From Dehalococcoidia bacterium (GTDB lineage: Bacteria; Chloroflexota; Dehalococcoidia; UBA6926), in assembly GCA_965207895.1 (NCBI GenBank), contig CBDBNN010000003.1:1027755-1091754 (forward strand): 64,000 nt of DNA. The letters are read 5' to 3'. Under the pieces are notes generated by a model. That model saw only the letters and a list, made by a program, of their open reading frames with translations, made no database searches and was not told where the DNA came from. The translations under genes and the position numbers were made by a program. Below are positions 8,732-60,600 of the stretch, one piece after another (position 1 is the first letter of the stretch; each line of letters begins with the position of its first letter).

Positions 8732-8739
8732 GGAACCAC

Positions 8740-8945: not shown

Positions 8946-8950
8946 CTCGA

Positions 8951-9154: not shown

Positions 9155-9201
9155 TGCCCCTCCCCAAGATGCTGGTAATCTGGGTGTCCCCTTCGTGTCT
9201 G

Positions 9202-9375
9202 CTATCCGTCGCTCCGATCCTCATCCTCCGTGGAGTCCTTGAGCGCGTCGATCTGGGAGCGGATATCGGACTGCCTTCGCGCCATGTAATAGAGATAGGC
9301 AAAAAACACGATCCACACCGCGGCGTAGGCCACGAAGACAAAGATTGGACTGAAGTCACCGAAATCGTTTTCCAC
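9202..9375 (-). CDS. ccmD: Heme exporter protein D (CcmD), 57 aa
   Basis: Not in the ORF track (<60 aa). GGAGGA RBS and a GTG start directly after the ccmC stop. Translation VENDFGDFSPIFVFVAYAAVWIVFFAYLYYMARRQSDIRSQIDALKDSTEDEDRSDG has a single TM in the canonical CcmD position. Confidence 0.6.
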   Translation of the reverse strand: MENDFGDFSPIFVFVAYAAVWIVFFAYLYYMARRQSDIRSQIDALKDSTEDEDRSDG

Positions 9376-9390
9376 GTCTGACTGTCCTCC

Positions 9391-10092: not shown

Positions 10093-10802
10093 TTCTCAAC
10101 CGTAACATAGAAGAGTAGCGAGGACACGAAGAGGAAAACAAGGTCGTACGCCGCCAGGATGGCCAGCCAGGGCCGTATATCATCCCAAGGCCCGTTATCG
10201 ATAGCGAGCGCCGTTGCACGCACGGCCCCGATGATGACCGGCACAAGCAGGGGCAACAGCATGATCGGCAGGAGCGCCTCGCGCGCCCGAGAACGCGCGC
10301 TGATCGCGGACAGGATAGTCCCCACGCTCGCGATACCGATGTTGCCAAGCAGTAGCGTCAAGAGCAACGTTGGCTGGAAAAACTGCAGGTTGAACAGGAT
10401 CACGGCCAGGGGAATAATGACGGCTTCCAGAACAAGTAACAGGATGACGTTGGCGGCCACCTTTGCAAGATAGAGCGCCCCCGGATCGATGGGACTCGCA
10501 AGTAGACCGTCCAGCGAGCCGCGCTCCACCTCTCGCGAAAAGGAGCGGCCCAGAGCCAACAGGCTCGCAAAGATGATTGCCACCCACAGGACTCCGGGCG
10601 CAACGAGATTCAGCGTGCCGCCGCGCAGGTCAAATGAAAACTGGAATGCGATTAGCGCCGCGGCAGCAAAGACGGCCATCGGGATAGCGGTCTCTCGTGA
10701 TCTGAACTCGACTGTGAGTTCCTTGGCCAGCAGAATCCGAATTTGACCGAAATAGCCGGGAGGCGAGGCGTGTTGGAGAGGGCTCATAACAACCTGCCTC
10801 AA
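10089..10802 (-). CDS. ccmB: Heme exporter permease CcmB
   Basis: 6-TM ABC-type permease between ccmA and ccmC with 4-nt overlaps. Confidence 0.85.
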   Translation of the reverse strand: MRQVVMSPLQHASPPGYFGQIRILLAKELTVEFRSRETAIPMAVFAAAALIAFQFSFDLRGGTLNLVAPGVLWVAIIFASLLALGRSFSREVERGSLDGLLASPIDPGALYLAKVAANVILLLVLEAVIIPLAVILFNLQFFQPTLLLTLLLGNIGIASVGTILSAISARSRAREALLPIMLLPLLVPVIIGAVRATALAIDNGPWDDIRPWLAILAAYDLVFLFVSSLLFYVTVEK

Positions 10803-29782: not shown

Positions 29783-29839
29783 AGCGGCATTATTTTAGAC
29801 CAATTTCAAAACCACGTCCAATCAACGCGCCCATCCGTG

Positions 29840-30000
29840 GCCATGAACCCGCTCTCCCTGAGCCTGTCGAAGGGCGAGCGCCGCGCCCTCCGTCATTTCC
29901 CGCGCAGGCGCGGCGAACGCCGCCTACAGGCAGCCACTCATGTCATTCCGAGCGGAGCGCAGCGGAGTCGAGGAATCCAAAATCTCAATTCTGCCATCCA
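29840..30000. repeat. Composite intergenic repeat (modules B+A-variant+C)
   Basis: ctccctgagcctgtcgaagggcgag ... gtcattccgagcggagcgcagcggagtcgaggaatccaaaatctc. Confidence 0.8.
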
Positions 30001-30022
30001 ACCTTGTAACGCCAATCCACGC

Positions 30023-30928
30023 TCAGGACGAACAGGGGTGGTCGTGAGAAAACGCCTCCTCAAGGATCGCCCGGGCCTGCTCTGAGGTATCGGGCCGTGA
30101 AAGCGCGAATGACGCAGCCGCCCGCAGATGTCCCAGCGGATTTCCTGCGTCATAGCGCACCCCGTCAAAGGCGAATGCGAATGTTGGGACTCCCTCCCGA
30201 CGCAGAATCTCCATCGCGTCTGTAATCTGGATCTCATCCTTCGCGCCGGGCGGCGTCCGTCGTATCGCGTCAAAGATTGTCCCCGGAAAGATATAGCGCC
30301 CAACGATGCCAAGATCAGAGGGTGCGTCCGCCGGATCCGGCTTCTCAACCATGCCCGTCACCCGATATACCCGCTCATCATCCCCGTCCGCCGGTTCAAC
30401 GGCGACCACGCCATACGCCGAGATGGCGTCCCCCGGCACTCGCTCAACCCCCACATGAATACCGGGATGATTGTCATATGCGGCCAGCATCTGCGCGAGG
30501 ACCGGCGTCTCCGCATCGACAATATCGTCAGGCAGGATCACGGCAAACGGCTCATCTCCCACGGCATCCGCAGCCTGCAGGATGGCGTGGCCGAGGCCAA
30601 GCGGCTCGTTCTGGTGAACGATCGTCACTGACAGCGAGTCCATAAGGCGTTGGACATCCGGCGCGCTGGAGTGCTCTCCCAGCGCTCTGGCCAACGCCTC
30701 GCCCCGCAGCGTCACATAGCTCTCCATCACTGCCTTGCCCGGAGCGCTGATCAGCACAATCTCCGTGAGCCCTGAGTTCGCCGCCTCCTCAAGCGCGTAG
30801 AACAGCATCGGACGGTCGAAGATCGGCAGGATCTCCTTGGGGATGGCGAGAGTCGCCGGCAGGAAGCGGGTTCCTCGGCCTCCAGCCACGATGACAGCCT
30901 TGCTGATCGCGCCTTGTCGTTCGCTCAC
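30023..30928 (-). CDS. galU: UTP--glucose-1-phosphate uridylyltransferase
   Basis: AVIVAGGRGTRFLPATLAIPKE nucleotidyltransferase motif. Confidence 0.85.
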   Translation of the reverse strand: MSERQGAISKAVIVAGGRGTRFLPATLAIPKEILPIFDRPMLFYALEEAANSGLTEIVLISAPGKAVMESYVTLRGEALARALGEHSSAPDVQRLMDSLSVTIVHQNEPLGLGHAILQAADAVGDEPFAVILPDDIVDAETPVLAQMLAAYDNHPGIHVGVERVPGDAISAYGVVAVEPADGDDERVYRVTGMVEKPDPADAPSDLGIVGRYIFPGTIFDAIRRTPPGAKDEIQITDAMEILRREGVPTFAFAFDGVRYDAGNPLGHLRAAASFALSRPDTSEQARAILEEAFSHDHPCSS

Positions 30929-33067: not shown

Positions 33068-33435
33068 GATCCCCCCTCCCTGAGGGAGAGGGTTAGGGTG
33101 AGGGGGTGTCTCTCCCTCGTCATTCCGAGCGCAGTCGAGGAATCCAAAGACTCATCTGACAAGCATGCTGGAACGCGGCAAGCCTGTTTCTTCTTCAGAC
33201 AAGGCAAGACCGCGAACTTAAGCCGTAGCGCAGCTACCCGTTCGCCCTGAGCGTAGTCGAAGAGGGCTCCCGAACGGGGACTTGGCCCACCGTCATTCCC
33301 TCGAAAGCATGTCCCGTGCTCCGATACGGGGCGGGAATCCAGTGCCGCCCACGGGGCGGCCTCGAAATCCCCTCTCCTTCAGGGAGAGGGTTAGGGTGAG
33401 GGGGTGCCCCCCCGCATGCCTTCGCTGAGACGGCT
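33068..33435. repeat. Large composite repeat cluster (modules D, C, B, A-variant, D)
   Basis: cccctccctgagggagagggttagggtgaggggg occurs twice, plus gtcattccgagcgcagtcgaggaatc, gttcgccctgagcgtagtcgaagagggctcccgaacgggga, and gtcattccctcgaaagcatgtcccgtgctccgatacggggcgggaatccagtgccgccc. Confidence 0.85.
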
Positions 33436-33471
33436 GGGATTCTCCCGACGGCAGAGTTGCTATCATGCGGG

Positions 33472-34452
33472 ATGTCCCTTTCCACAGTCATTCCGTTTCA
33501 ACGTCCCCGACCAAGTCTGGAGATGTTGATCTGGTCGGCGACAATACTGCTGCTGCTGACAGGCTCTCTGCTCCCGCAAGCCAACACCGACATGCTGAGA
33601 GACGTAGGTCGCGGCCTGCTATCCTTGCTGCCGGTGGTTGTGGTCGCTGCGCTTCTCGCAGGGGCGCTGACAGCTGGCCGGTGGGCAGACCGGGCATTGG
33701 CATGGCTCAAGGGCGGATCCGTACGGACAGTGGTCATCGCAAGCTTCGTCGGGGCCGTTACGCCGGTCTGCGGCCTCGCAGTGCTGCCCCTGATTGTCAC
33801 CCTCTTGCGTCGCGGCATCACAATCCCTCCGGTCATGGCGTTCTGGCTGGCCTCCCCGGTGACCGATCCAAGCATGTTCCTCGTTACCGCCGGCATCATC
33901 AGCGTGCCCTTTGCCATTGCAAAGACTGTGAGCGCCTTTGCCATCGGCTTGCTCGCGGGCGGGGTGACCGCGATGCTGCCGGCCTACCGAGGCGCTGGTC
34001 ATGAGCTGATGCGCCCTGAAGTTCTGGCACAGTACGAATGCGAAGAAGAAGACGCCCGATTCTGGCCTGCCGTCTGGGGCAGTGCCCGACCGATCATCCA
34101 ATGGTTGGCGCTAGCGTTGGTGCTGGAGGTCTTCCTTGAGCGACTGGTACCTGATGCATGGATCATGTCGCTTTTCGGCAGCGAGGCCGGCGCATCGGTT
34201 CCATTTGCCGTTCTCGTGGGTGCGCCCATGTATCTCGACGGCTATGCGGCCCTGCCCTTGGTGAGAGGGTTGATGGATATGGGCATGGGTTTTGGCTCCG
34301 CCCTGGCGCTCATGATCTCAGGCGCGGCGGTCAGCTTCTATGCCGCTGCGGCGGTTGTTTCCATTGTTCGTCCTCGGGTCTTCGCACTGTACGTCTTGCT
34401 CGCCCTCACCGGCGCCTGCCTCGCCGGCTATCTGGCCAACTGGCTCCTGTAG
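33472..34452 (+). CDS. Predicted permease (DUF318/ArsP_1-like family)
   Basis: 8-TM protein with a TPVCG motif. Start uncertain (TTG 33457, ATG 33472 or ATG 33523). Confidence 0.55.
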   Translation: MSLSTVIPFQRPRPSLEMLIWSATILLLLTGSLLPQANTDMLRDVGRGLLSLLPVVVVAALLAGALTAGRWADRALAWLKGGSVRTVVIASFVGAVTPVCGLAVLPLIVTLLRRGITIPPVMAFWLASPVTDPSMFLVTAGIISVPFAIAKTVSAFAIGLLAGGVTAMLPAYRGAGHELMRPEVLAQYECEEEDARFWPAVWGSARPIIQWLALALVLEVFLERLVPDAWIMSLFGSEAGASVPFAVLVGAPMYLDGYAALPLVRGLMDMGMGFGSALALMISGAAVSFYAAAAVVSIVRPRVFALYVLLALTGACLAGYLANWLL

Positions 34453-37904: not shown

Positions 37905-38120
37905 CCCCTCATTCCGGCGAAAGCCGGAATCCATCGGGATACCCTCCCCCTCGCAACCACCGTCACCCCCGCGCAGGCGGGGGCAGGGTGGGGGTGAAGA
38001 GAGAATCCCCTCCCCCTCGATGGGGGAGGGCTAGGGTGGGGGTGACGGCAACGTCATTCCGAGCGTAGCCGAGGAACCTAAAGTCGTATCTGGTTACCAA
38101 GTTGGAACGCGGCACCACAA
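37905..38120. repeat. Composite repeat cluster (A'-variant, D-variants, C-variant)
   Basis: cattccggcgaaagccggaatccatcggga, cccctccccctcgatgggggagggctagggtgggggtga, gtcattccgagcgtagccgaggaacctaaag. Confidence 0.8.
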
Positions 38121-38182
38121 ACACACCGGCCCTCCGTGCAGGAACGCGAACCGAGAGCTGTAACGCAGTTACCTCCCATCCG

Positions 38183-38962
38183 TCACTCCTCCAGCGACGC
38201 CAAAAAACCCTGCAGACGGCTGTTAAAGGCCTCGGGATCCTCCCTGTGCGCCTCGTGGCCCACGCCCGGCAACAGGTCAAGCTCCGCCCCACGGATGGAA
38301 TCCCGGAGCATACGGGCGTGCCTGGCCCCAGCCCAATCGTCATCCTCCCCCTGCACGATCAGCGTTGGGCAGGTGATAGTATCCAGCCGGTCGCCGACGA
38401 TGCGGGGCTCGGTCTGATAGATGCGCTCCGCGCTCGCCACGTAGTCGTCGACCATCCCCTCCCAATAAGGGGAACCGTGGCTGCGGGCGAGGGCTTGCTG
38501 AAAGCCATCGGGCAGGTTGCTGGCGGGTGACAGCTGCCGCGTCGTCTCCATCGTCTGTTCGTCTAGAACCGCCTGCCCGGAGATCAGCGTCAGCGACCGC
38601 AGTCGATCGGGATGGTCGCCGGCAACCATCATCGCCACGATAGCGCCGTCGCTGAACCCGCACAGATGGACGGGCGGCAGCTCCAGGTTTTCAATCAGGG
38701 CCGCAATGTCCTCAGTGTCCCTCTCGTAGAAATCGTCGAACGATTCACGAGGGTCCGATCCGCCGTGGCCCAGGAAATTCGGCACGATCACCTGGTAGTC
38801 CGAGGCGAACTCGTTTATCTGTCCCCGAAAGTGGGCGCGGCCGGTCCCAAGCGCCCCGTGCAGGAACAGCAGCGGCGGCCCATCCCCCTGCACGATGCAG
38901 CGCAGACGGCCATGCTGCGCCATAACATCTATCTCTTGCGGTTGTTCAGCTTCATACGTCAT
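38183..38962 (-). CDS. Alpha/beta hydrolase fold protein
   Basis: LLFLHGALG oxyanion region and GFSDGA nucleophile elbow. Start set at MTYEAEQ with GGAG RBS. The N-terminal extension into the repeat region is rejected. Confidence 0.8.
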   Translation of the reverse strand: MTYEAEQPQEIDVMAQHGRLRCIVQGDGPPLLFLHGALGTGRAHFRGQINEFASDYQVIVPNFLGHGGSDPRESFDDFYERDTEDIAALIENLELPPVHLCGFSDGAIVAMMVAGDHPDRLRSLTLISGQAVLDEQTMETTRQLSPASNLPDGFQQALARSHGSPYWEGMVDDYVASAERIYQTEPRIVGDRLDTITCPTLIVQGEDDDWAGARHARMLRDSIRGAELDLLPGVGHEAHREDPEAFNSRLQGFLASLEE

Positions 38963-39059
38963 AGATCGTCTCCGCCCCCTCCCCATGCGATACACGGCAA
39001 GCGCCTGATTATACCAAGTCTGGTGAGCCCACCAAGACTGAATTGCGAACTTAAGCCGT

Positions 39060-39240
39060 AGCGCAGCTACCCGTTCGCCCTGAGCCTGTCGAAGGGGGCT
39101 CCCGAACGGGGAACTAACACCACCGTCATTCCCGCGCCAACCGAATCCCCGCGCAGGCGGGGCCCACGCCGCCCACAGGGCGGCTCCCCATGTCATTCCG
39201 AGCGCAGCGAAGAATCTACAGACTCAATTATGCCGCCCAA
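39060..39240. repeat. Composite repeat cluster (B, A-variant, C) at the left border of the low-GC island
   Basis: gttcgccctgagcctgtcgaagggggctcccgaacgggga, gtcattcccgcgccaaccgaatccccgcgcaggcgggg, gtcattccgagcgcagcgaagaatctacag. Confidence 0.8.
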
Positions 39241-39260
39241 CCCCCATTGCGTGCTCTCGT

Positions 39261-39962
39261 TCATCCTGACTGCAATGGAGATTGGCTGACTTCAACGTGA
39301 ACAATCCTACGTTCATCTGGACGAATTGAATCTGGGAAAGAAGTGCGGGGTATTGGCAAACTTGCTACGTAATTATGGTGTGCGCTGTTGTAGAAGTTGC
39401 GCAGAACGAAATCCACGAATTTGGTCGGTGTCAGCGGAGAACTTACTGGAATCCTGCAGTTTCGGTATTGTCCGAGAGTCAGATGTACTCTTGGGTGTAA
39501 CGATTCTGGTGGTCCCTGATCTGCCAAGTTATAGTCGAATCTCAAAGGAACAGGGACCACATTGCTTGCCACCACTTCCGCGAAGACCACGTTATTGATA
39601 TAGATGTCAGGATTAGCTTGGAACTCATGAAGATATGGGGAAGGGAAGAAAGCGAGGCGGTGACTTATGAGCCGACTTCCGTCGTATCGATAAAGCATCT
39701 GTAGCAGACCACCGTCAAGCATCTTGACGTTGTAAGCCCTCGATGCAACTAGCTGATCATAGATAACCTCGTACTCTTGGTTGTGAAGTGCAACACTTAT
39801 ATGTTCGGAACCTTCAAAGCTTATCTCTAGGAACCCATCATTTAGCCGCCGTTCGAACGGAAAGCTTTGATCATCTGCTAGACTTTCAACAATCAAGAAT
39901 CTAATGATTCCAGTGATCTCGGCTTTCGTTTCGTTTGCGGTGGCCATGACATTAGTCGTCAA
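39261..39962 (-). CDS. Hypothetical protein, 233 aa, no recognisable domain. Partner gene of the NERD-helicase (11-nt overlap)
   Basis: ORF in a low-GC context. Its start overlaps the stop of the upstream helicase gene. Confidence 0.55.
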   Translation of the reverse strand: MTTNVMATANETKAEITGIIRFLIVESLADDQSFPFERRLNDGFLEISFEGSEHISVALHNQEYEVIYDQLVASRAYNVKMLDGGLLQMLYRYDGSRLISHRLAFFPSPYLHEFQANPDIYINNVVFAEVVASNVVPVPLRFDYNLADQGPPESLHPRVHLTLGQYRNCRIPVSSPLTPTKFVDFVLRNFYNSAHHNYVASLPIPRTSFPDSIRPDERRIVHVEVSQSPLQSG

Positions 39963-42144
39963 GCAGTTCTCTTAGCTTCAGAACGTCCATTTTGTCCAAG
40001 TCCTCCGTCCGCATCTCCCCAGATTCAAGGCTCTCTATGAGCTCTGCAAATCTCCGCCGCCCACCTTCCAGACGCCGCTTCTCCGACTTTGTCATATCTC
40101 GGTGAACGATCTTGAGGCGCTCCCGTAATGTTGCCCCCGGATACACAAAATCCAACTCAAAGTCTCTTTTTCGGAGTTCCTCATATTCTTTCATGAGAGG
40201 CTGCATGCGATTTCCGAAACCGACCACTCGAATCCAAGCTTTACTTCGTGTAATCGCAGTGAAAAGACGATTACGCACTGTTGCTAGATTTATCGCAGAT
40301 GTCGTGCAATCTTGGGCATTGATGATGTAGACCATTCCAGCCTCGTTCCCTTTAGCGCGAAAGATCCCAGTAAATGTTACGGAGGGCGTGCCGGACATAT
40401 AGAATACGTCTGGATCTGTGTCTACACCCGCAATATGCGACTGAATACCCATATCCGCTAGCATTGCTCTTATGGGCCCTACGTTTGCTCGGGTCGAAGT
40501 AGGGTCTGGATTGATGACGACAATGTCGTCATGGCGCAACTCTTCATCCTCAATATTGGCCTTAATCTGAGTTGCCACCCATTCAGCCTGCTCCGCATCG
40601 CTTTCAAAAACTTTGAACTGAAGCAAGTCACTCAGGTCTGAGTGATCCTCAAGGAATCTAGGACTAGTCGTTTCATCACGTTGCAAAACAACCGGTTCGT
40701 TGTCTGCGAGCCGCCCTTCTCGAACCCTGTAGCCCACGTCCTCCCACAAGTTTGCATTGTCGAACATTTGAATTAAGCCGGTGTCAGCTCCAGTCGGTGC
40801 CTCCCGATAGATACCGAACCCGAGGGCATGGGCAGTTACGAGCAGTGGACGTGAGTTCCTGTAACACTTCCGCAAAATGATGTCAGCGCTGTCAGGCTCG
40901 TTACTCGCCTGTACTCGACCGTTACCTGATGCTGCCTCTGGCATATCTTCAAATATTCTCTCTGGTGACGGCAACGATTCGTCCCTGAGATTCTGCAACT
41001 CGTCATAAGCATAGACCAGCCGCTTAGGCTCTCTCAGGAAAGCATGGCATAGTCTGAGAAATGCTGGCGAGAAGTCTTGTGCCTCGTCAATGAGAATGGC
41101 GTCGTACTGAGGGCGTAATTCCTCCGCTTGGCTAAGTGCCAATGCGCAGGCCTTCGAAAAGGTGTCTTGCGCTCCTAAAGTTCGCCTCGCAGATTGGAAG
41201 TCAAAATAGGATAAACCGTGAGTATGGCAGAACTCAAAATATATGCCATCGCGTCTATTGGCGCCAGGAGCACCCCAAGCATTCACTATGCGAAGTTGGT
41301 CCCAATTCGGTTCTTCATTTGTTTGTTGAAGGAAAAAGGATGCGATTAGTCTCTGAAAAAGTGCCTTTAGAGATCTTGTGTTGAACGTAACAGCGATCCG
41401 CCAGTCTGGGTGCTGGGCATGCAAATATGCTGCCTTTCGGGCGAGAACGATGGTCTTCCCTGACCCTGCAAGCCCTCTGATTCGTTGGACGCCCTCCACA
41501 GTTTCGACAACTGCCTTGCGTTGCATTCCATCCAGGGCAGCAATCGAACCCTCTAGCTGCTTTAACCTAGCACCCCTAGAATCGGGCGATTCTGCAGGCC
41601 GCTTGGTCCTCGTTTGACGGATAGCTGACGTGCTGTCAATTGCTGCGAGCGTGGCCTCGAACAAATCAGCCCGTTCCCATGTGGCTCCACTGGCAGTTAA
41701 CTTGCTACCCAAATCCTGTGCGTTAGCTATCGGATAGCCTTTCGTTCCGCTATCTGGCGACATATCTACCGCAGGAGCAAAAGATATTACCTCTATTGGA
41801 ACGAGGAGTTCTCGATGTTCCACAAGCTCTCGCTGTAGTTTCAATTTCGATTCCAACTTGTTGTAAGAATCATCTTGCAATGCTTCGTATCCCTGAAGGT
41901 CGGTGCCCTCTATAAGGCAAATTATGGTCACGCCTGTCTCTCTAGTGACTAGTAGCCCGTCGATTACATGCGGACCTTCGCTCGTTGCCACTATTGGGTA
42001 GCCAACAAGCAGGAGGCCGCTAAGGCCTTCAAGGTCGGTTACAATGCTCGCCAAGACGCTTGAGGAGGCAGGTTTATTGCTTGTACCCCTTACGACTTCT
42101 ATGCTCACAGCTTCACCCCAGAACGCTATGGTGCTTGCCTCCAC
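39952..42144 (-). CDS. Fusion of an N-terminal NERD-like/PD-(D/E)xK-like nuclease domain with an SF1 (UvrD/DUF2075-like) helicase/ATPase. Nhi-like architecture
   Basis: N-terminal LLLVGYPIV...HVIDGLLVTRETGVTIICLIEG resembles NERD. Walker A GLAGSGKT, Walker B ILIDEAQDF, YRNS, FRAKGNEAGMVYI and TAITRSKAW motifs of the SF1/DUF2075 type. Start codon uncertain (GTG at 42144). Confidence 0.7.
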   Translation of the reverse strand: MEASTIAFWGEAVSIEVVRGTSNKPASSSVLASIVTDLEGLSGLLLVGYPIVATSEGPHVIDGLLVTRETGVTIICLIEGTDLQGYEALQDDSYNKLESKLKLQRELVEHRELLVPIEVISFAPAVDMSPDSGTKGYPIANAQDLGSKLTASGATWERADLFEATLAAIDSTSAIRQTRTKRPAESPDSRGARLKQLEGSIAALDGMQRKAVVETVEGVQRIRGLAGSGKTIVLARKAAYLHAQHPDWRIAVTFNTRSLKALFQRLIASFFLQQTNEEPNWDQLRIVNAWGAPGANRRDGIYFEFCHTHGLSYFDFQSARRTLGAQDTFSKACALALSQAEELRPQYDAILIDEAQDFSPAFLRLCHAFLREPKRLVYAYDELQNLRDESLPSPERIFEDMPEAASGNGRVQASNEPDSADIILRKCYRNSRPLLVTAHALGFGIYREAPTGADTGLIQMFDNANLWEDVGYRVREGRLADNEPVVLQRDETTSPRFLEDHSDLSDLLQFKVFESDAEQAEWVATQIKANIEDEELRHDDIVVINPDPTSTRANVGPIRAMLADMGIQSHIAGVDTDPDVFYMSGTPSVTFTGIFRAKGNEAGMVYIINAQDCTTSAINLATVRNRLFTAITRSKAWIRVVGFGNRMQPLMKEYEELRKRDFELDFVYPGATLRERLKIVHRDMTKSEKRRLEGGRRRFAELIESLESGEMRTEDLDKMDVLKLRELLDD

Positions 42145-42298
42145 TATTGTAACGGCTTACACTCCGCTCTCCCTACATCTAATCGAGGTCAGAAAGGTGC
42201 CAGCTATTCGGTTAGACTGTGAAGTTCTCTAACGGCAGTAAGTTTCGACTGAAAGTAAGGATGGGTTTGGAAGGCGCACTGCAACAAGAGTGAAGCAT

Positions 42299-42370
42299 GG
42301 GCCCGGCAGGGATCGAACCTGCGACCGATCGGTTATGAGCCGACTGCTCTGCCACTGAGCTACGGGCCCC
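42299..42370 (-). tRNA. tRNA-Met (anticodon CAT). Could alternatively be tRNA-Ile2 (lysidine), but not initiator-like
   Basis: Cloverleaf read from sequence: acceptor GGGCCCG/CGGGCCC, D-arm GCTC-AGTGGCA-GAGC, anticodon loop CTCATAA, T-arm GCAGG-TTCGATC-CCTGC, discriminator A, no encoded CCA. Confidence 0.8.
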
Positions 42371-44861: not shown

Positions 44862-45700
44862 GACGTCTCGCCTCGGTTCGCGGCCAGAAAACGCTGCATC
44901 ACCAGGGCGATTGGCGCCCACTCGTCGATGGTCAATGTCTCGGCCCGCCGCCGCCCATCGATCCCGATCGTCGTGAGCGCCGCGTCCACGAACTGCGCCT
45001 CGGTGCCAAGCCCCCCGGCCAGCGAGTTGCGCAACTGCTTGCGCGGCGCGCTGAAACCGGCCCGCGCCACACCGAAGAACTGCGGCTGCTGGTCCTCGGA
45101 AACACGTGGCTCCGGCAGCACATCCAGCCGAACGACAGCCGACTCAACACCCGGTGCGGGCACGAAACTCCCGGGCTTCACACGCCGCACGATCCGCGCA
45201 TTCGCGAAGACCTGCGTCGCGATCGTCAGCAGGCTTGCCTTGCCGGGTGGGGCCGTCATCTGCTGCGCCACCTCACGCTGCACCATCACCACCATCCGCT
45301 GCGGTGGGTGGCTCGACTCAAGGAACAGCCGAATGGTGGGAGACGCGACGTAATAGGGCAGATTCGCAACGACAACATACGGTCTCCCCCCCGTCAACTC
45401 CGCCGGTGACTGGTCGCGGATGTCTCCGTGAAGCAGCGTCAGATTTTGGTGTTCGGATAGCATCGTGCGCGCCTGTGCGACCATGTCCGCGTCGATTTCG
45501 ACGGCAACGACGTGCCCCGCGTTTTCGAGCAGCCGGCGCGTCAGCAACCCTGTCCCCGGCCCCACCTCCACGACAAGATCCTCGCTGGACAACTCCGCAG
45601 CCTCAACAATCCCGTCAAGCACCCCCCCGCTCACGAGCAAGTGCTGCCCCAGCGCCTTATTCAACCGAGGCCGTTCAGACCGCTTTCGGCGTGTCGTCAT
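44858..45700 (-). CDS. rsmA: 16S rRNA (adenine1518/1519-N6)-dimethyltransferase RsmA/KsgA
   Basis: LGQHLL, SAM-binding VVEVGPGTG, and NLPY motifs. Start at MTTRRK with GGAGGG RBS. The track N-terminal extension into the repeat is rejected. Confidence 0.85.
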   Translation of the reverse strand: MTTRRKRSERPRLNKALGQHLLVSGGVLDGIVEAAELSSEDLVVEVGPGTGLLTRRLLENAGHVVAVEIDADMVAQARTMLSEHQNLTLLHGDIRDQSPAELTGGRPYVVVANLPYYVASPTIRLFLESSHPPQRMVVMVQREVAQQMTAPPGKASLLTIATQVFANARIVRRVKPGSFVPAPGVESAVVRLDVLPEPRVSEDQQPQFFGVARAGFSAPRKQLRNSLAGGLGTEAQFVDAALTTIGIDGRRRAETLTIDEWAPIALVMQRFLAANRGETS

Positions 45701-45715
45701 CCCGCCCTCCGTAAT

Positions 45716-45830
45716 AGCATTCCCCTCATTCCGACGAAAGCATGCCCCGTACTCCGATACGGGGCCGGAATCCATCGGGACAATCCCCTCCCCCTTGATG
45801 GGGGAGGGTTGGGGTGGGGGTGAACACAAA
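45716..45830. repeat. Composite repeat (A-variant + D-variant)
   Basis: cattccgacgaaagcatgccccgtactccgatacggggccggaatccatcggga...cccctcccccttgatgggggagggttggggtgggggtga. Confidence 0.8.
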
Positions 45831-46139
45831 AAGAAAAGAGGCCATGCACCCCCTCTCGAACTGGATACCGGATGGGCGAAACGACCACGCGACTCAGCCC
45901 AGGCGCTCCCGCGGCGCCCGAAGGACATTCCTTATCGTTGCTTCCTTCCGGACCTGGCGAAGTTCAGAGGCCTTCGTCGCACGGGACCCGAACATCAACA
46001 TCGTTTGAGCGCCTCGCGTCATTCGGACCACAGCCCTCAAGAGGGAATTCAGCCTCGCTAGAGCGGATTGCGAGTACAGGGCACCGCTGGCTCCCCGCCT
46101 AGCATGACCTCGAAACTCAGTATCCCCGCGCCACCCCAT

Positions 46140-46330
46140 TCGGTCAACGCCCCCCCGTTCGCCCTGAGCTTGTCGAAGGGGGCTCGCGAACGGGAACCTG
46201 GACCCCCTCCGTCATTCTGGCCGCACGGCCAGAATCTGAATCGTATTGCGCCCCCAACTCCGGTAACGCCATGTCCGTCATTCCCGTGAAAACGAGAATC
46301 CAGTGCCGCCCAGAGGGCGGCCACAATCCC
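46140..46330. repeat. Composite repeat cluster (B, A-variants)
   Basis: gttcgccctgagcttgtcgaagggggctcgcgaacggga, gtcattctggccgcacggccagaatctgaatc, gtcattcccgtgaaaacgagaatccagtgccgccc. Confidence 0.8.
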
Positions 46331-46465
46331 CTCTAACGGCCAAAGCCGGAAAGCGGCACACCAAACGTAACGGCCACCGTGCCGGACCGCGAACCTTGGC
46401 CGTAGGCACTGCCTACCCCTTGCTACACTAACCACAACAACCGCCGAACAGTCAGGAAATCCCGA

Positions 46466-46855
46466 ATGCCAAAGACCATCTACCTCGCAAACCCCTACGG
46501 CTTCTCTCGACAACAGCGGGCCCTCCTCCTGCCGCCGATCGTTGCCGCCCTCGAGGAACTGGGCCTTGAGGTCTGGGAGCCCTTCTTACGCAACAATCAG
46601 GTCGACTTCTCACAGGAGGGATGGGCCTACCAGGTGGGGCAGCTCGACTACAGCGACGTGGCTGAGAGCGACGCCATCTTTGCCGTCGTCAACGGCGTCC
46701 CGCCGGACGAGGGCGTCATGATCGAACTGGGGATGGCCATAGCGCTAAAGAAACCAACCTTCCTGTTCCGCGACGACTTCCGACGAGCCAGCGAAAGCGA
46801 TCAATACCCGCTGAACCTCATGCTCTTCACCGGACTACCCGAAAAGGGCTGGTAG
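46466..46855 (+). CDS. Nucleoside 2-deoxyribosyltransferase family protein
   Basis: IYLANPYGFS...GVMIELGMA motif pattern of the family. The gene is bracketed by repeat clusters on both sides. Confidence 0.75.
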   Translation: MPKTIYLANPYGFSRQQRALLLPPIVAALEELGLEVWEPFLRNNQVDFSQEGWAYQVGQLDYSDVAESDAIFAVVNGVPPDEGVMIELGMAIALKKPTFLFRDDFRRASESDQYPLNLMLFTGLPEKGW

Positions 46856-46924
46856 GACTACTACTACAAGTCGGTGAACGAAATAACCTCCCCCGACAAA
46901 GCCCTCGCCCGCTGGGCCTCCTCC

Positions 46925-47100
46925 CCCTAACACGAACCACATCGTCATTCCCACGAAAGCATGTCCCGTACCCCGATACGGGGCGGGAATCCAGTGCCGC
47001 CCCCAGGGCGGCCAATCCCCTCTCCCTGAGGGAGAGGGCTAGGGTGAGGGGGTATGTCATTCCGAGCGCAGCAGAGGAATCTAAAGCCTGCTTCTCAAGG
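46925..47100. repeat. Composite repeat cluster (A-variant, D, C)
   Basis: gtcattcccacgaaagcatgtcccgtaccccgatacggggcgggaatccagtgccgccc, cccctctccctgagggagagggctagggtgaggggg, gtcattccgagcgcagcagaggaatctaaag. Confidence 0.8.
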
Positions 47101-47386: not shown

Positions 47387-47477
47387 TTTCTGGCCCCTTC
47401 CTTGAGTAACGTGATACATATATTCTAAGCATTTCGTGCGCGGATGGCTTCGCCCCCCATCCCCTACAATTAACCCT

Positions 47478-49130
47478 ATGACCACCCCAACCCCACCCAC
47501 CAACTGGAAAAACAAGCTCTACTTCGGCGATAACCTCCCCATCATGCGGGAGCACATCCCGGACGAGTCCGTCGATCTCATCTACCTCGATCCTCCCTTC
47601 AACTCCAACGCCACCTACAACGTCCTCTTCCGCGAGCACGATTCCTCAGAGTCCGCCGCCCAGATACAGGCATTCGACGATACCTGGCACTGGAGCACGG
47701 ACGCTGAATGGCATTACGAGCGGGTCGTCACCACCGGCCCGCGCAAACTCGCGGACATGCTCCAGGCCATGCGCACATTCCTCGGCCAGAACGACATGAT
47801 GGCCTACCTCACCATGATGGCCCCGCGCATGGTGGAGCTACATCGCGTCCTCAAGCCCACCGGCAGCATCTATCTCCACTGTGACCCCACCGCCAGCCAC
47901 TACCTCAAGCTCCTCATGGACGCCGTGTTTGGGCAACAGAGCTTCCGCAATGAGATTATTTGGAAGCGCCAGAGCGCCCATAGTGACGCCCGTGGATTCG
48001 GCTCGGTCCACGATACTTTGCTGTTCTACGTAAAGTCCGATGAGTTTATGTGGAATCCTACTTTCCAGCCTTACGAGCAGGAATACGTCGACAACTACTA
48101 CCGATACAAAGACGACGATGGCCGCCGATTCATGTCAGGTGACTTAGGTGCTGCTGGACTCCAAGGTGGCGGCTATGAATATGAATGGAAAGGTGTTACG
48201 AGAGTTTGGCGCGTTCCTATTGAGACCATGGAACGATTGGATTCAGAAGGGCGAGTCTTCTACACAAGGAATGGAATACCAAGAATCAAGCGTTATCTTG
48301 ATGAATCGCAGGGTAATCCGATTCAGGATGTCGTTACGGACATTCAATCCCTGCGGTCGTGGCACGATGAACGCCTCGGTTACCCCACCCAGAAACCCGA
48401 GGCGCTACTAGAGCGCGTCATCTCCGCCTCCAGCAACGAGGGCGACGTCGTCCTTGACCCGTTCTGCGGCTGCGGCACCGCCGTCGCCGTCGCGGAGCGC
48501 CTGAACCGCAAGTGGATCGGCATCGATGTCACCCATCTGGCCATCTCGCTCATGCGCAGCCGCCTGCGCGACTCGTTCGGCGATGACCTGTCCGACTACG
48601 AGGTCGTCGGTTCCCCCGCGGACGCTGAGAGCGCCCGCGCCCTCTCGCTTGAGGGCGGCAACACTGGCCGCTACCAGTTCGAATACTGGGCGCTCGGCCT
48701 TGTCGAGGCGCGCCCCGCGCGCGATATGAAGAAGGGCGCGGACGCCGGCATCGACGGCTACATCAACTTCTTTGATGACAACTCCGGCAAGGCAAAGACC
48801 GTCATCGTCCAGGTCAAGAGCGGTAACGTGGGCCGCAACGTCATCGCCACTCTCAAGGGCGACATGGATCGCGAGAATGCAGAGATGGGTCTGCTAATCA
48901 CCTTGCAGCCACCCACCGGCCCCATGCTCAATGAGGCCACATCCGCCGGATTCTACACGCCGGAGGCATACCCTGATCGCCAATTCCCGCGCGTCCAGAT
49001 CGCCACCATCGACGACATCCTCAACGGCAACGGCCCCGCGATACCGCAGCTCGGCCTCTCCCAGGCCCCCACCTTCCGCCGCGCCCCCCGCCGCCGCAGA
49101 ACACAAGGCCGCTCCGAACGAATGCTGTAG
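47478..49130 (+). CDS. DNA methyltransferase (beta-class N6-adenine/N4-cytosine, DPPF motif IV before motif I) fused to a C-terminal Mrr-cat-like restriction endonuclease domain
   Basis: Motif IV IYLDPPFNS. Motif I VVLDPFCGCGTAVAVAERL. C-terminal GADAGIDGYINFF...KTVIVQVKSGNVG matches the Mrr catalytic-domain pattern (D...D/QxK). Confidence 0.85.
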   Translation: MTTPTPPTNWKNKLYFGDNLPIMREHIPDESVDLIYLDPPFNSNATYNVLFREHDSSESAAQIQAFDDTWHWSTDAEWHYERVVTTGPRKLADMLQAMRTFLGQNDMMAYLTMMAPRMVELHRVLKPTGSIYLHCDPTASHYLKLLMDAVFGQQSFRNEIIWKRQSAHSDARGFGSVHDTLLFYVKSDEFMWNPTFQPYEQEYVDNYYRYKDDDGRRFMSGDLGAAGLQGGGYEYEWKGVTRVWRVPIETMERLDSEGRVFYTRNGIPRIKRYLDESQGNPIQDVVTDIQSLRSWHDERLGYPTQKPEALLERVISASSNEGDVVLDPFCGCGTAVAVAERLNRKWIGIDVTHLAISLMRSRLRDSFGDDLSDYEVVGSPADAESARALSLEGGNTGRYQFEYWALGLVEARPARDMKKGADAGIDGYINFFDDNSGKAKTVIVQVKSGNVGRNVIATLKGDMDRENAEMGLLITLQPPTGPMLNEATSAGFYTPEAYPDRQFPRVQIATIDDILNGNGPAIPQLGLSQAPTFRRAPRRRRTQGRSERML

Positions 49131-54646: not shown

Positions 54647-56332
54647 TTGATTGACCGCCGGGCTCTAAACGCCGTCGTAATCCTGACCATCTTCACGGTT
54701 TTATCCCTTCTGCTCTCTTGCACTCAGATCGACACCACTCCGACCTCGACTCAAGATTCTGACTCTCCCGCGCCAACCGCTGAAACGGAAACGTCGGCGA
54801 CAACACCGCTAGCAACTGCGACTCCTGTCCCTCCTGCATCGACTCCGGCTCCACCGACGGCCACACCCCCATCCCCTACGGCGACACCGTTGCCTGTGCC
54901 GACGCCGACGCCCACGGCGCTGGAATTGAAACTTGCGCGCATTGAGCAATTGCGTTGGTACGACGACGAATCATTGACGCAGGAATCACGCAACTCTTTG
55001 GTGACGAATCTCTGTGATCTCGCTACAGCTCATCCTGAGCTCTTTGAGGATGTTCTGAGCAAGAACTGGATTAATCCGGTCGACCAAACAGAATTGGACA
55101 CGGCTGGGTCTGTCGTTAGCCGCCTGATCGAGCTTGCCGGGAATGACGAAAGGGCAGCCCAGGACGTTCTTGTGATGCCATTCCTAGAAAGCCTTGATTC
55201 CATCAGAGAGCTTGATGAGTTACAGGCCGGGGAAGCAGAGATTCAAGTGCTGGATGCGCTGGTTTTTTTGAGCAATTTAGTCGATGGAGATTTCAGCGAC
55301 TACCTGGATAGCCTTCCTCTTGATGGCCCGATTGATGACCAAATTCTTGAGTACGATGATGACAATGACTCCAAAACGGACTTTGCGGAGCAACTGTCTT
55401 ACTACTATGTCCAGTGGACCAATCCTGAAATCGCCAGCGAAATCGATTCCATCACTCGGGGGCCTCATGAGCGGTTAGATTGGGCTTCAGACTTTGCGAT
55501 GCTCTACCTTTCTAAGCCCGAGACCTATCGACAGCTGTATGACGGACTCACTGGGCGTGGCGCAGGCGACTCTACGATTCGTGCCTTTTTGTACATCGCC
55601 ATTCAGGAACCGGAATTGGCTGTCCGAATCAGTCAAATGCCCGTTGCGATGGCAAGAGAAGAAGGCTACTTCTCCGCATGGGGCTTCCTTAGGAGGGCCC
55701 TGGAGCACGACCCGGCAAAGACCTGGGAAATTGTTGACGAGGTTGCACAAGACGGGGTTATAGAAGTAACTGACAACTATGCTTTCATGTTGGCCCTTCT
55801 TGGTGTGTTCGATTCAGAATTCAGCGAAACGCTCACAGCACTGCCCTGGGTGATTGATGGCGTACGGCCGCGGGAATACACGGTCAATGAAGAGGGTGAA
55901 CGTTCTTACTGGACTGGCTCTGGGGAAGATGAACCATTCATAAACTTGATCTACTGGGGGCTGGAACCGGAACGGACTGCGCTAAACAAACTGCTCAACA
56001 TGGGGTGGATTCGTGACGATGAATTCGATTGGTACGAGAGGAAGGTGGTTGACGAGCTGACGAACTTCTCCCATGCAGAAGTAGAAGTTCTATTGGATCT
56101 ACAGTTTCTGCGGAGCATTGAGAATGATGACCGTTTTTCTTTAAGCCGACTTAGGAATGCAATAGAGACTGATTCGGAACTTTCCTACCCCTTCCAGGAC
56201 ATTATTGAGCACCGATTGTTTGGTGGAGACATTACGGATGAGAACCAGTGCTACCTTGAGCGTGTCATTGAGGAACTGAGGCCGGGGTCGACGCGTGTCG
56301 CTGCAAATCCCGGCGCCGGAGAATCCTGCTAA
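54647..56332 (+). CDS. Hypothetical lipoprotein with a long Pro/Thr/Ala-rich linker and a ~450-aa acidic helical domain
   Basis: Lipobox LLSC. PTPT-rich low-complexity region. No catalytic motif. Confidence 0.5.
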   Translation: MIDRRALNAVVILTIFTVLSLLLSCTQIDTTPTSTQDSDSPAPTAETETSATTPLATATPVPPASTPAPPTATPPSPTATPLPVPTPTPTALELKLARIEQLRWYDDESLTQESRNSLVTNLCDLATAHPELFEDVLSKNWINPVDQTELDTAGSVVSRLIELAGNDERAAQDVLVMPFLESLDSIRELDELQAGEAEIQVLDALVFLSNLVDGDFSDYLDSLPLDGPIDDQILEYDDDNDSKTDFAEQLSYYYVQWTNPEIASEIDSITRGPHERLDWASDFAMLYLSKPETYRQLYDGLTGRGAGDSTIRAFLYIAIQEPELAVRISQMPVAMAREEGYFSAWGFLRRALEHDPAKTWEIVDEVAQDGVIEVTDNYAFMLALLGVFDSEFSETLTALPWVIDGVRPREYTVNEEGERSYWTGSGEDEPFINLIYWGLEPERTALNKLLNMGWIRDDEFDWYERKVVDELTNFSHAEVEVLLDLQFLRSIENDDRFSLSRLRNAIETDSELSYPFQDIIEHRLFGGDITDENQCYLERVIEELRPGSTRVAANPGAGESC

Positions 56333-56467
56333 GAGGCAGATCATCCCCTGGTAGTAGGTGGGACAAAAACCAAACCCGCCGCCAAATCTCTCACAAGAGA
56401 CTAGGCGGCGGGATGTTGCGCTTGGTTACTAGACCCGCAGCACGCGGTAGCAATTGCCTTTCTTGTT

Positions 56468-57121
56468 CTAATAAATGTGCCGCTGTACAGAAGTGGCGAC
56501 GAACTGCTCAATGTCCATGATCGCCTGCGTGGTGGCCTGACCTACGAGGTCCAGCCTGCGCACCTGCTCGATGCGTTCGGCGGCGCTATTCAACTCGCGG
56601 CGTGACAACATGCCGCGCAGAATTCCACACGCGTCTGTCAGGCTCAACAAGACGATGTCACGCGGATCGGGGATCTCATCGCTAAAAAGGATACTCATCA
56701 GGCGCAGGCGCACTTCCCGCTCTTCCTTGCCGTCAACCATGGGATAACGGCGCGACTGAAATACCCAGAGAAAGCGATCATCCTTGCGTTCCAGAATGCC
56801 TCCATCGACTAGGCGATTTAGCGCTTCCTCACGGATTTCAGCTGCGCGGTTAGCAGTATGTTCAACCCAATAGCGCGCGTTCCGTTCTTCACCCGCAGCT
56901 ATGTCTGCCAACGTCGGGTCCAACAGCGAATCGTCAAGCGGCGAGGAATCTACCAGCACCAATCGCTCAAGGTCTGTGTCGATACGATTCTCCAGCGCAA
57001 GATCCATCAAGACGGCACCGGCCAGGGCATAGTCCATAGACCAGCTTGGCACGCGCGCGAATCGACCGTCATCGTCGTTCAAAAGGAGTAGAATGATCTC
57101 TTCAGCGAAACGTAGCGGCAT
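56468..57121 (-). CDS. GPP34/GOLPH3-like family protein
   Basis: N-terminal AEEIILLLLNDDDGRF and overall helical pattern resemble bacterial GPP34 homologs. Confidence 0.55.
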   Translation of the reverse strand: MPLRFAEEIILLLLNDDDGRFARVPSWSMDYALAGAVLMDLALENRIDTDLERLVLVDSSPLDDSLLDPTLADIAAGEERNARYWVEHTANRAAEIREEALNRLVDGGILERKDDRFLWVFQSRRYPMVDGKEEREVRLRLMSILFSDEIPDPRDIVLLSLTDACGILRGMLSRRELNSAAERIEQVRRLDLVGQATTQAIMDIEQFVATSVQRHIY

Positions 57122-57678
57122 GTCTTCCCCCTACTCTCAACGACGGCAGTACACACCGCTATCGTTGTTTTCTTCCCCATTTGGCCTATTATGGCTGTCC
57201 TCTGTGCGCTGCTTCTGACCTCATTGTAGCCCACGAGCCAACACAAATGCACCAAGAACCAGCAGTTGTTGAACACCATTGACATGCCAATCTGGCCTGG
57301 AGAGAGATTGGGTGAAAACAAGCCACGCCATATAGCGTGAAACCTGTAGAAAGAGTGATGCCCACAGACGTGTCGTCGCTGACCGGAGGGCCGCTGATAC
57401 TGAGGCTACACTCGAGGAATGGGTGACGATGGCATCGGTTACGTGCGGACCTTGCCGCCAAGGTGAGGGAACGAATCAACAGTGAGTGCCAGCAGAAGCA
57501 CCTTACCTCTTCGCAATATGTAGACGTTCATGGCATGTACGTGTTACACATGTGGTGGCATCGTGGCGCGGTTGCACTTCACCTAATACCTTGATAGTCG
57601 TCCTGCGGGGCCGAAGTGGGGAACGGGGGCCAATGTGGTTTAGATGCCACGTTGGGTTGGTAGGTTAGCGCGTCGCGA

Positions 57679-60600
57679 GTGGTTTCCGGGTTCAGGCAAT
57701 TCACGCGGGTTCTTGCTAATCCCGCAGCGGTCTCATCGTTGCTGGTCATGGCTGGAGTGCTCTCAAGCCTAGCTCTGTATATCGTTCTTGAAGAAACCGC
57801 TTTAGCGCAGTCGCTCACTGCACAGCAGTCTCTCGCTATCGAAGGTCCTACAGCTATTGAGTTTCCTGAGAACAGTGGTGAGGCCATCGCCACGTATCGA
57901 GTGACGAATGCTACGCCTGGCTCGATAATCTCCTGGTCAATTGATGGCGCTGATGCCAGAAGGCTGTCCATAGATGGTTCCGGCGTCTTGCGTTTCAAGG
58001 CGGCCAGGAACTTCGAGGAGCCGAATGATGGAAACCGTGACAACGAGTACGAGATTGATTTATCAGCAAGCGATGGATCAACTCAAGTCTCGGTTGAGGT
58101 GGCCGTCATGATTACGGATGTTAATGAGTCGCCGGCTTTTGAACTCGAAAGCGCGGAATTCTCAGTAGAGGAAAACGCATCCGCCAATCGACGTGTGGGT
58201 GGTGCACTCGCGGTTATAGACCCCGATGACGGCGACTTGATGACGTTCTCATTGGAAGGAGAAAATGCAGACCCGTTCCATATTGACGCCGAAGGGCAGA
58301 TTCGTGTGCGCCCGGGTGCCATCCTCGACTACGAGACCTCAGGCATTCTGAGTTTCACCGCTCGTGTAACAGATCAGGATGGCCTGAGTGTTTCATTGCC
58401 TGTTCAGATAGCCCTAACCGATGCAGACGATCCGGGGATCGTTACCTTCTTGTCTGCCCGGCCGTTTGTTGGAGTGCCGCTCACGGCGATGGTTTCCGAT
58501 CAGGATGGTGTTACTGGTCGAATCCGATGGAGATGGTATCGAGCCACGAACACTAACGATGAATTCGAGCGAATTGATGGAGCGACTGGGATCTCGTATA
58601 CGCCAATGGATGATGACGAGGGATACATCTTGCGCGTGACGGTTTCGTACGAGGACAACTTCGAAGTAGGGGCTTCAGCTTCGCAAATCAGCGAGAAAGT
58701 TGGCAGAAACGCTGCGCCTCAGTTTGAATCGGCGTCCATCACTCTGACGGTTCCGGAGGGCGCGCCTGCCGGAACGGATGTTGGCAAACCTGTTACAGCG
58801 ACGGACAGTGATGATCACGATCTTACCTACGCTCTTTCAGGAGAGGATGCGTCTTACTTTGAGGTCAACGTTTCAACCGGACAGATTAGAGTTGGCGCGC
58901 AGGCGCTGCCAGATTCAGAGACGAAGGCCAGCTACACAATGATTGTTACTGCGACGGATGAGGCGAGGGCGGCAGCGTCCGTCACGGTGATAATTACAGC
59001 AAGAGTTTCAAATACTCCGTCCGTCATCATCGGTCCGGCCACTGTCAGCTACGCAGAGAACGGCACGGCGTCTGTGGCAATGTACACGACCACTGACCTA
59101 GAGGGCGATGGAATTATTTGGGGCATTGAAGGAACTGACGCGGCGCGATTCACGATAAACGTTGCGGGCGAGCTGATATTCAATTCGCCGCCAGACTATG
59201 AGAAACCGCGTGATGCCAACATGGACAACGTGTACGAACTCACGGCGACGGCGTCGGACGGAAACCTCACCGCCGAACTGAATGTTGAAGTCGCTGTGAC
59301 GAACGTCAATGAGGCAGTCATCATCACCGGCTCCGCATCCGTCACTTACGCGGAGAACGATACTACAGCAGTCGTAGTGTATTCCGCTATCGACTCGGAT
59401 GGAGACAGAATCACGTGGGATGTTGTGGGAACGGACGCGGATTGGTTCTCGATCAGCCAAGTAGGAGAGCTAACATTCAACTCGCCGCCGGACTATGAAA
59501 AACCGCGAGACGCCAACAATGACAACGTCTATAAGGTGTCCGTGACGGCGTCGGACGGCAATCTTGAGTCTACGCTGAACGTGGAAGTTACCGTCACGGA
59601 TGTCGTTGAGGCTAGCGCCATCACCGGTCCTGCAACTGTCAGCTACGCGGAGAATGGCATGGCGTCTGTGGCAATGTACACGACCAGTGATCCGAATGGA
59701 GACAGAATCACGTGGGACATTGCCGGAGTGGACGCGCCGCGATTCTCGATCGAGCCAACGGGTGAGCTGACGTTCAAGTCGGCACCGGACTACGAGAAGC
59801 CGCGTGATGCCAACAAGGATAACGTCTATAAGGTGATGATTACCGCGTCGGATGGGAACGTCACGGCCAGATTGGATGTTGAAGTCAGCGTCAGCAACGT
59901 CAATGAGGCCGCCTTGATCGATGGTGCGACGTCTGTTAGCTATCCGGAGAACAGCATCGTATCAGTGGCAATCTACTCGGCCACGGATCCGGATGGAGAT
60001 GAAATCACGTGGGATGTTGCGGGAACGGACGCGTCGCGGTTCTCGATCAAAGCAACGGGAGGATTGACGTTCAAGTCCACGCCGGACTATGAAAATCCGA
60101 ATGATGCCAACAACGACAATGTGTACGAACTGACAGTGACGGCGTCTGACGGCAATCTTGAATCCACCCTGGACGTGGAAGTTAATGTCACGAACATCGA
60201 TGAGTCCACCGTCATCACCGGCCCCGCAACTGTCAGCTACGCGGAGAATGGCATGGCACCTGTGGCACTTTACACGACCACTGATCCGAATGGAGACGGA
60301 ATCACGTGGAACATTGCCGGAGTGGACGCACCGCGATTCTCGATCGAGCCAACGGGTGAGTTGACGTTCAAGTCGGCACCGGACTATGAGAAACCGCGAG
60401 ATGCCAACAAGGACAACGTGTACGAAGTGACGGTAACAGCGACGGACGGCAACCTTGAGTCTACGCTGGACATTGAAGTTACTGTCGCGAACGCCAACGA
60501 GCCTGTGACTATCACCGGCTCCGCGTCCGTCACGTATGCAGAGAACAACGCCACGGCTGTAGCCGTGTATTCCGCTACGGACCCGGATGGCGACGGAATC

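Follow-up and report, generated by a model that had tools for sequence, protein, structure and literature searches.

The window analysed here is a 64,000-nucleotide (nt) stretch of the genome of a Dehalococcoidia bacterium (GenBank assembly GCA_965207895.1, contig CBDBNN010000003.1, positions 1,027,755 to 1,091,754). The open reading frame (ORF) listing gives a minus-strand ORF at 39261..39962, which encodes 233 amino acids (aa) when read from its TTG codon. It adjoins directly the downstream end of a same-strand ORF (39952..42144) for a 730-aa helicase. A first-pass annotation, made from the sequence before any database search, had described the smaller product as an orphan of a new family with no recognisable motif. 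Profile searches show otherwise. The protein matches Pfam family PF10053 (DUF2290) with an E-value of 1.2e-46 (159 bits against a cut-off of 25), and the PADLOC model PDLC02999 ‘DUF2290’ with an E-value of 2.9e-84 (ORF residues 6–226 against model positions 1–221 of 222). All alignment columns that are invariant in the family are kept in the window protein. The upstream protein matches the PADLOC model PDLC03002 ‘Helicase’ (E 9.9e-295, model positions 2–705 of 707), and the PADLOC library includes a Helicase+DUF2290 system.

A one-genome-per-species scan returned 225 relatives of the DUF2290 gene. We fetched 80 loci, which span Chloroflexota, Binatia, Latescibacterota, Cyanobacteria, Proteobacteria, Spirochaetia, Planctomycetota, Saccharibacteria and other groups. 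A tblastn search with the window helicase as query placed a full-length homologue of it (45–60% identity) immediately upstream, on the same strand, in 79 of these 80. At the single exception the contig ends 55 nt upstream of the DUF2290 gene, so the helicase is present at every testable locus (79/79). Pairing is also kept on plasmids of Escherichia coli, Corynebacterium glutamicum, Mycobacterium gordonae and Thioflavicoccus, at DUF2290 identities of 25–29%; identity to the window helicase is 37% for the M. gordonae plasmid helicase and 53% for that of the E. coli plasmid. Since the pair is found at all testable loci and persists at 25–29% identity, the DUF2290 protein is an obligate, co-transcribed partner of a defence-type helicase. 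The first-pass annotation had anticipated this partnership, and we found neither a homologue lacking the helicase nor a match to a housekeeping family. The family itself is large: one search returned 591 homologues and another 1505 clusters at 50% identity, which places the ORF far beyond chance. The best 150 of the 1505 cluster representatives are all stand-alone proteins, with full-length members of about 215–240 aa and no domain fusions among them. No DUF2290 relative is encoded in phage records.

The full-length profile matches of both genes, their tight same-strand arrangement with the helicase first and the pairing in all testable relatives identify the ORF, with high confidence, as the DUF2290 subunit of the Helicase+DUF2290 anti-phage system (Rst_HelicaseDUF2290 in DefenseFinder). 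The window pair is an instance of an already described system: complete, apparently intact and divergent, its nearest sequenced relatives being 57% (DUF2290) and 63% (helicase) identical. Helicase+DUF2290 was reported from a P4-satellite hotspot in Klebsiella pneumoniae SB5961 and specifically inhibits phage T7 (Rousset et al., Cell Host Microbe 2022, PMC9122126). The Klebsiella homologue from the P4 satellite protects E. coli against T7 (PMC9122126). Published genome predictions of the system have been made by both PADLOC and DefenseFinder.

The first-pass annotation placed the start codon of the small gene inside the end of the helicase gene. The TTG at 39962 does overlap the helicase ORF by 11 nt, but an in-frame ATG at 39947 is a likelier start. 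This codon lies 4 nt past the helicase TAA (39954..39952) and yields a 228-aa protein; the junction reads ...CTT GAC GAC TAA TGTC ATG GCC.... The public NCBI/ENA product (P0001) is the identical 228-aa form beginning at this ATG, the N-termini of DUF2290 homologues (218–228 aa) align with its methionine, and the PADLOC DUF2290 model, from its position 1, begins to align at residue 6 of the 233-aa ORF. On these three grounds the true start is most likely ATG 39947 and the overlapping TTG is unlikely. With the ATG 4 nt past the stop codon the genes are tightly juxtaposed and coupled, probably without overlap. Where an ATG can be called in relatives, most gaps from helicase stop to DUF2290 start fall between −13 and +8 nt, the commonest value being +5. 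As no Shine–Dalgarno sequence is evident on reading the 4-nt spacer, coupling by termination and reinitiation is plausible.

Two remarks on composition had also been made. The low guanine-plus-cytosine (GC) content that the gene was said to have in common with the helicase is confirmed, at 0.464 for the DUF2290 gene and 0.506 for the helicase against 0.61–0.63 in the flanks. The protein had further been called Cys-poor with a His/Tyr-rich C-terminal half. It does contain a single cysteine (C164, near-invariant in the family), but His and Tyr are evenly spread (by half, 5 His and 5 Tyr against 4 His and 6 Tyr).

The upstream gene encodes a superfamily 1 (SF1) UvrD-like helicase with the Pfam domains UvrD-helicase, UvrD_C_2 and AAA_19. 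In the residue numbering of the 730-aa form, which we use throughout, its ATPase motifs are intact (Walker A, G227-S-G-K230-T; Walker B, D353-E-A-Q). Because its homologues (715–726 aa) begin at window residues 13–15, its start is likely GTG 42108, which gives 718 aa. The public annotation (P0271, 659 aa, MTIICL...) drops some 60–70 N-terminal residues that are conserved in all homologues. Table 1 collects the coordinates.

Table 1. The helicase–DUF2290 pair and its immediate surroundings in the window, with conserved residues of the DUF2290 protein among 144 family members
Feature	Position	Strand	Details
DUF2290 gene	39261..39947	-	228 aa, from the most likely start; Pfam PF10053, PADLOC PDLC02999, NCBI/ENA product, homologue N-termini
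Spacer, helicase stop to DUF2290 ATG	39948..39951	-	4 nt; read from sequence
SF1 UvrD-like helicase	39952..42108	-	about 718 aa from GTG 42108 (likely start); extendable to GTG 42144 (730 aa); PADLOC, Pfam, homologues
Low-GC two-gene cassette	39231..42297	.	3,067 bp, GC 0.497; composition, repeats, housekeeping neighbours
tRNA-Met (CAT)	42298..42369	-	ARAGORN; 3' end abuts low-GC insert
R136, H155			144/144 members
Y59, R165			143/144 members
D138, H151			142/144 members
D78, Y86, C164			141/144 members
Y186			140/144 members
R97			133/144 members
H96			128/144 members
E212			128/144 members (plus 12 with Asp)
T157			127/144 members (plus 7 with Ser)
H217			123/144 members

Horizontal acquisition of the pair, as a 3.07-kb low-GC cassette at tRNA-Met, is indicated by its GC content of 0.497 against about 0.62 in its surroundings and by its abutting the tRNA gene. 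It lies between the 3' end of the tRNA, which marks an exact boundary, and an alpha/beta-hydrolase gene. At the tRNA 3' end the GC content drops from 0.63–0.65 to about 0.50. An MFS transporter gene lies further outward, together with ispE-like and ksgA-like ORFs, these two read from their translations without a profile search. The cassette shows neither an integrase nor att-type direct repeats on its flanks, and scans for promoters and terminators turned up no signal exceeding that expected from shuffled sequence. A 13-nt repeat common to the tRNA anticodon arm and the interior of the DUF2290 gene is probably due to chance. Related operons directly abut a tRNA gene at 4 of 60 loci, and the tRNA differs among the four.

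In the two closest relatives (L085, 5288..8115; L086, 5845..8666) the pair sits between hsdS and hsdR of a type I restriction-modification (R-M) operon. On the Thioflavicoccus mobilis plasmid pTHIMO01 it lies inside a BREX locus (L084, 5561..12464; pair at 7578..10431, with lower GC than its surroundings). Such embedding of relatives in other defence loci is in line with a role in defence. Also near the L085 and L086 pairs are NTP_transf_2/NTase_sub_bind pairs and HicAB, HigB, PIN and PemK toxin-antitoxin modules. The pTHIMO01 pair is flanked by a 663-aa PglX-type methylase and by a 673-aa protein without Pfam match, and these two proteins could derive from a pglX that has been split in half.

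Several other features of the window were recorded. About 5 kb from the cassette, a gene at 47436..49130 (plus strand) encodes a 564-aa protein that joins an N6/N4 DNA methylase (PF01555, E 6e-45) to a C-terminal Mrr_cat restriction-endonuclease domain; it may be a second defence or R-M gene. Between this fusion and the ksgA-like ORF lies a gene for a 129-aa nucleoside 2-deoxyribosyltransferase (46466..46855, plus strand; PF05014, E 1e-26). A second lower-GC stretch (54647..62760, plus strand; GC 0.51–0.55 at 55–60 kb) encodes a 561-aa protein without Pfam match and a 1693-aa cadherin-repeat protein. Spurious intergenic ORFs (e.g. 29837..30085, 33234..33491, 37963..38343, 45697..45888, 46058..46513 and 46827..47060) contain recurring peptides, among them ‘...LSLSKGER...’, ‘...LTLSLKERG...’, ‘WIPAPYRSTGHAF.GM’ (twice) and ‘FDKLRANG’, which suggests that the genome carries a family of short interspersed repeats. 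The alpha/beta-hydrolase ORF beside the cassette (38183..39196, minus strand) has a long N-terminal extension through a repeat-like stretch; as its Pfam matches begin only at residue ~107, its true start is probably well downstream of 39196.

The N-terminal ~200 residues of the helicase form a conserved domain in which D62, E79, Q90 and D91 are invariant and K24 is near-invariant. The first-pass annotation had named the protein a NERD-helicase, a label that no profile supports. NERD (PF08378) gave no match on the full helicase (E ≤ 1), on residues 1–205 (E ≤ 10) or on 120 homologues, and the PADLOC ‘NERD+UvrD’ model aligns to the UvrD part only (residues 202–389). The D...(D/E)xK signature is likewise missing: D62 and E79 are invariant, but there is no lysine at +2, where the canonical ExK motif would have it. 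The aligned ‘DLI’ position, which would supply the first acid of the motif, is variable (55 Asp, 11 Asn, 3 His, 2 Ser) and is a cysteine in the window helicase. A profile search of the PDB with the N-terminal domain found nothing, and with the helicase it found weak PcrA matches only. The supplement of PMC9122126 reports weak HHpred matches of Klebsiella helicase residues 15–85 to two PD-(D/E)xK families, BpuSI_N (88%) and MmcB-like (83%), and labels a Bacillus cereus homologue as NERD. From D62 onward, this B. cereus protein and the window helicase share 33% identity; the former has no NERD match in the current Pfam release. A degenerate nuclease-like fold in this domain is possible.

For the DUF2290 protein, the initial AlphaFold model, from 38 sequences, was of middling quality, with a predicted local distance difference test (pLDDT) score of 71. 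A model from 144 diverse sequences was confident (pLDDT 91.1, predicted template-modelling score 0.89). It predicts an alpha+beta structure that opens with a helix at the N-terminus and has nine strands of short or medium length along with several more helices. Foldseek found no relative in the PDB for the pLDDT-91 model (best E 0.45, template-modelling (TM) score ≤0.22) or for the pLDDT-71 model, and none among viral models (BFVD); over all these searches the best E-values were 0.2–0.45 and TM-scores were ≤0.3. The protein also lacks PDB sequence-profile matches, PHROGs matches and NCBIfam matches at E ≤ 0.01, and no second Pfam family recurs among the 144 members.

Conservation within the family is sharply focused. 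Besides R136 and H155, about 14 further polar residues are kept in at least 85% of the 144 members. To us this set looks like a putative active or ligand-binding site, and so suggests an enzyme. We also considered a 2H phosphoesterase and rejected this assignment. The protein has one H-x-T/S-x motif only, H155-L-T157-L (His in 144/144 members, Thr or Ser in 134/144), and its other conserved histidine lies in H96-R-L-A. No 2H structures were among the Foldseek matches of the model.

How the two proteins might work together can be outlined. We hold weakly, at somewhat short of an even chance, that the helicase is the sensor and motor and DUF2290 the effector under its control. Helicase and DUF2290 would be produced at a constant ratio and assemble with each other. 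The UvrD-like ATPase/helicase would load on, or translocate along, phage DNA or replication intermediates, and DUF2290 would be a catalytic effector that the helicase releases, activates or restrains. Its candidate active site would draw on Y59, D78, Y86, H96, R97, R136, D138, H151, H155, T157, C164, R165, Y186, E212 and H217, and the most plausible activity would be that of a phosphodiesterase acting on nucleic acid. The idea of a DUF2290 effector is based on the near-invariant polar residues, the stand-alone protein, the confident fold and a helicase N-terminus without the canonical D...ExK triad. A more specific form of it is more doubtful still: that DUF2290 is an enzyme of a fold without a solved relative, a catalytic effector switched on by the UvrD-like helicase, with R136, D138, H151, H155, C164 and R165 as its active site.

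Several points weigh against this picture. The literature searched holds no biochemical function for DUF2290 and no mechanism for the system, the DUF2290 model matches nothing in the PDB or BFVD, and the status of the protein as an enzyme is deduced from its conservation pattern alone. The helicase N-terminal domain, with D62, E79, Q90, D91, K24 and its weak published PD-(D/E)xK links, could be the effector instead. As for defence itself, a lactococcal Helicase+DUF2290 homologue gave no protection from the phages tested, deletion of the system in Pseudomonas aeruginosa had phage-specific effects only, and the activity of the window copy is a prediction from homology.

If the helicase N-terminus were a PD-(D/E)xK- or NERD-like effector, as in single-protein nuclease-helicases such as Nhi, the roles would be reversed and DUF2290 would be a non-catalytic sensor, specificity factor or regulator. 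We consider this reversal, the leading alternative, rather unlikely, while recognising that it accounts for the conserved D62, E79, Q90, D91 and K24 of the ~200-aa domain, for the published BpuSI_N and MmcB-like matches, for the alignment of the NERD-labelled B. cereus homologue from D62 and for the lack of detectable similarity between DUF2290 and known enzymes. It is at odds with the missing ExK lysine, with the variable first-acid position (Cys in the window copy) with the failure of any NERD or nuclease profile to match the window helicase, its isolated N-terminus or its 120 homologues, and with a PDB profile search that found nothing for the N-terminal domain. Moreover, a mere adaptor would not usually be as dense in invariant His, Asp, Arg, Cys and Tyr as DUF2290 is.

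Another possibility is that DUF2290 is a translation-targeting toxin like TumE (DUF6516), which the helicase restrains and infection releases, leading to abortive infection. TumE is a validated toxin that inhibits translation, a suspected RNase, with an alpha+beta fold lacking PDB matches (PMC10584680), and DUF2290 is likewise alpha+beta without PDB matches. A published HHpred comparison links Klebsiella DUF2290 residues 74–185 to nearly the whole PF20126 (DUF6516) model at 87.8% (PMC9122126), and in both families conserved histidines come after an invariant R-[FY]-D motif. The window protein, however, has no PF20126 match in Pfam, and PF20126 is not one of the 25 families that the 144 members match most often, out of 38 in all (hmmscan, E ≤ 5). 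For a profile–profile comparison we assembled a DUF6516 set from a Halococcus plasmid gene, its close relatives and eight more-divergent haloarchaeal genes, and ran hhalign with full and core DUF2290 profiles in three ways. The probability was <1% with this DUF6516 set, which is haloarchaeal only and of low diversity. The sole alignment covers 12 columns (R-F-D-Y-D against R-Y-D-N-D, E 0.37), and a metagenome scan for DUF6516 gave near-identical copies only. The published link was thus not reproduced; with so narrow a DUF6516 alignment the comparison is not decisive, and overall we judge a TumE-like toxin improbable. On the haloarchaeal plasmids examined (L094–L101) the DUF6516 gene comes first and is followed by a ‘transcriptional regulator’ or hypothetical gene, and the Halococcus locus (L087) likewise has a same-strand helix-turn-helix gene downstream of DUF6516.

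It would be very surprising if the pair had no part in defence and served DNA repair, replication or the upkeep of its mobile element. Repair commonly involves UvrD-like helicases, some copies lie on plasmids beside stability genes, and the inactive lactococcal homologue would be in keeping with such a role. Set against this are the direct anti-T7 activity of the Klebsiella homologue, the relatives within R-M and BREX loci, the patchy distribution across phyla together with atypical GC here, and the lack of a housekeeping family match.

For the window, the pair is a standard match, recognised full-length by PADLOC models, that marks a small acquired defence cassette at a tRNA gene. Its general value is that a validated system contains a protein, DUF2290, that folds confidently, matches nothing solved and has sharply conserved candidate catalytic residues. 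The residue list and the recurrent placement in type I R-M and BREX operons may help work on the mechanism. Should DUF2290 prove to be a catalytic effector with a fold of its own, this widespread cassette, with >1,500 clusters at 50% identity across many phyla, would hide a new class of defence effector.

The closest known counterpart is the Helicase+DUF2290 system of Klebsiella SB5961, which has the same two families, helicase-first order, tight junction and protein sizes (~715 and ~220 aa). The window copy differs in being a bare chromosomal cassette at tRNA-Met rather than part of a P4/P2 hotspot, and its host is a bacterium of roughly 59–60% GC. Protection from T7 has been shown for the Klebsiella system, whereas the window copy is known from sequence. 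TumE-TumA resembles the pair in that TumE (DUF6516) and DUF2290 are small alpha+beta proteins without PDB relatives, each encoded second in a bicistronic pair, and in the published weak HHpred link. The window pair has a ~720-aa helicase where TumE has a small DNA-binding antitoxin, and our profile–profile comparison with the narrow DUF6516 set gave no support for the link.

We also looked for membership in Hachiman or Gabija and found no matches to HamA (DUF1837), HamB or GajA, and only local ones to GajB. Gabija (GajA, an OLD-family nuclease, and GajB, a UvrD-like helicase) also combines a UvrD-like SF1 helicase with a second protein. The GajB matches of the window helicase are weak and confined to the first helicase motifs (PADLOC, E 1e-7 over ~60 aa); the pair has no GajA or OLD-TOPRIM partner, and gene order and partner fold differ. 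Hachiman (HamA nuclease and HamB helicase) has no sequence relation to the pair, as neither window protein matched the PADLOC HamA and HamB models. No PD-(D/E)xK match was obtained for DUF2290. The window helicase is SF1 UvrD-like, while our source groups SF1 and SF2 defence helicases without giving the class of HamB. The likeness lies in the architecture: two genes, for a helicase and for a small protein that had long been listed as a DUF. In Hachiman this small protein proved to be the effector, which the helicase restrains, and the control of DUF2290 by its helicase that we propose would, by analogy, resemble that of HamA by HamB.
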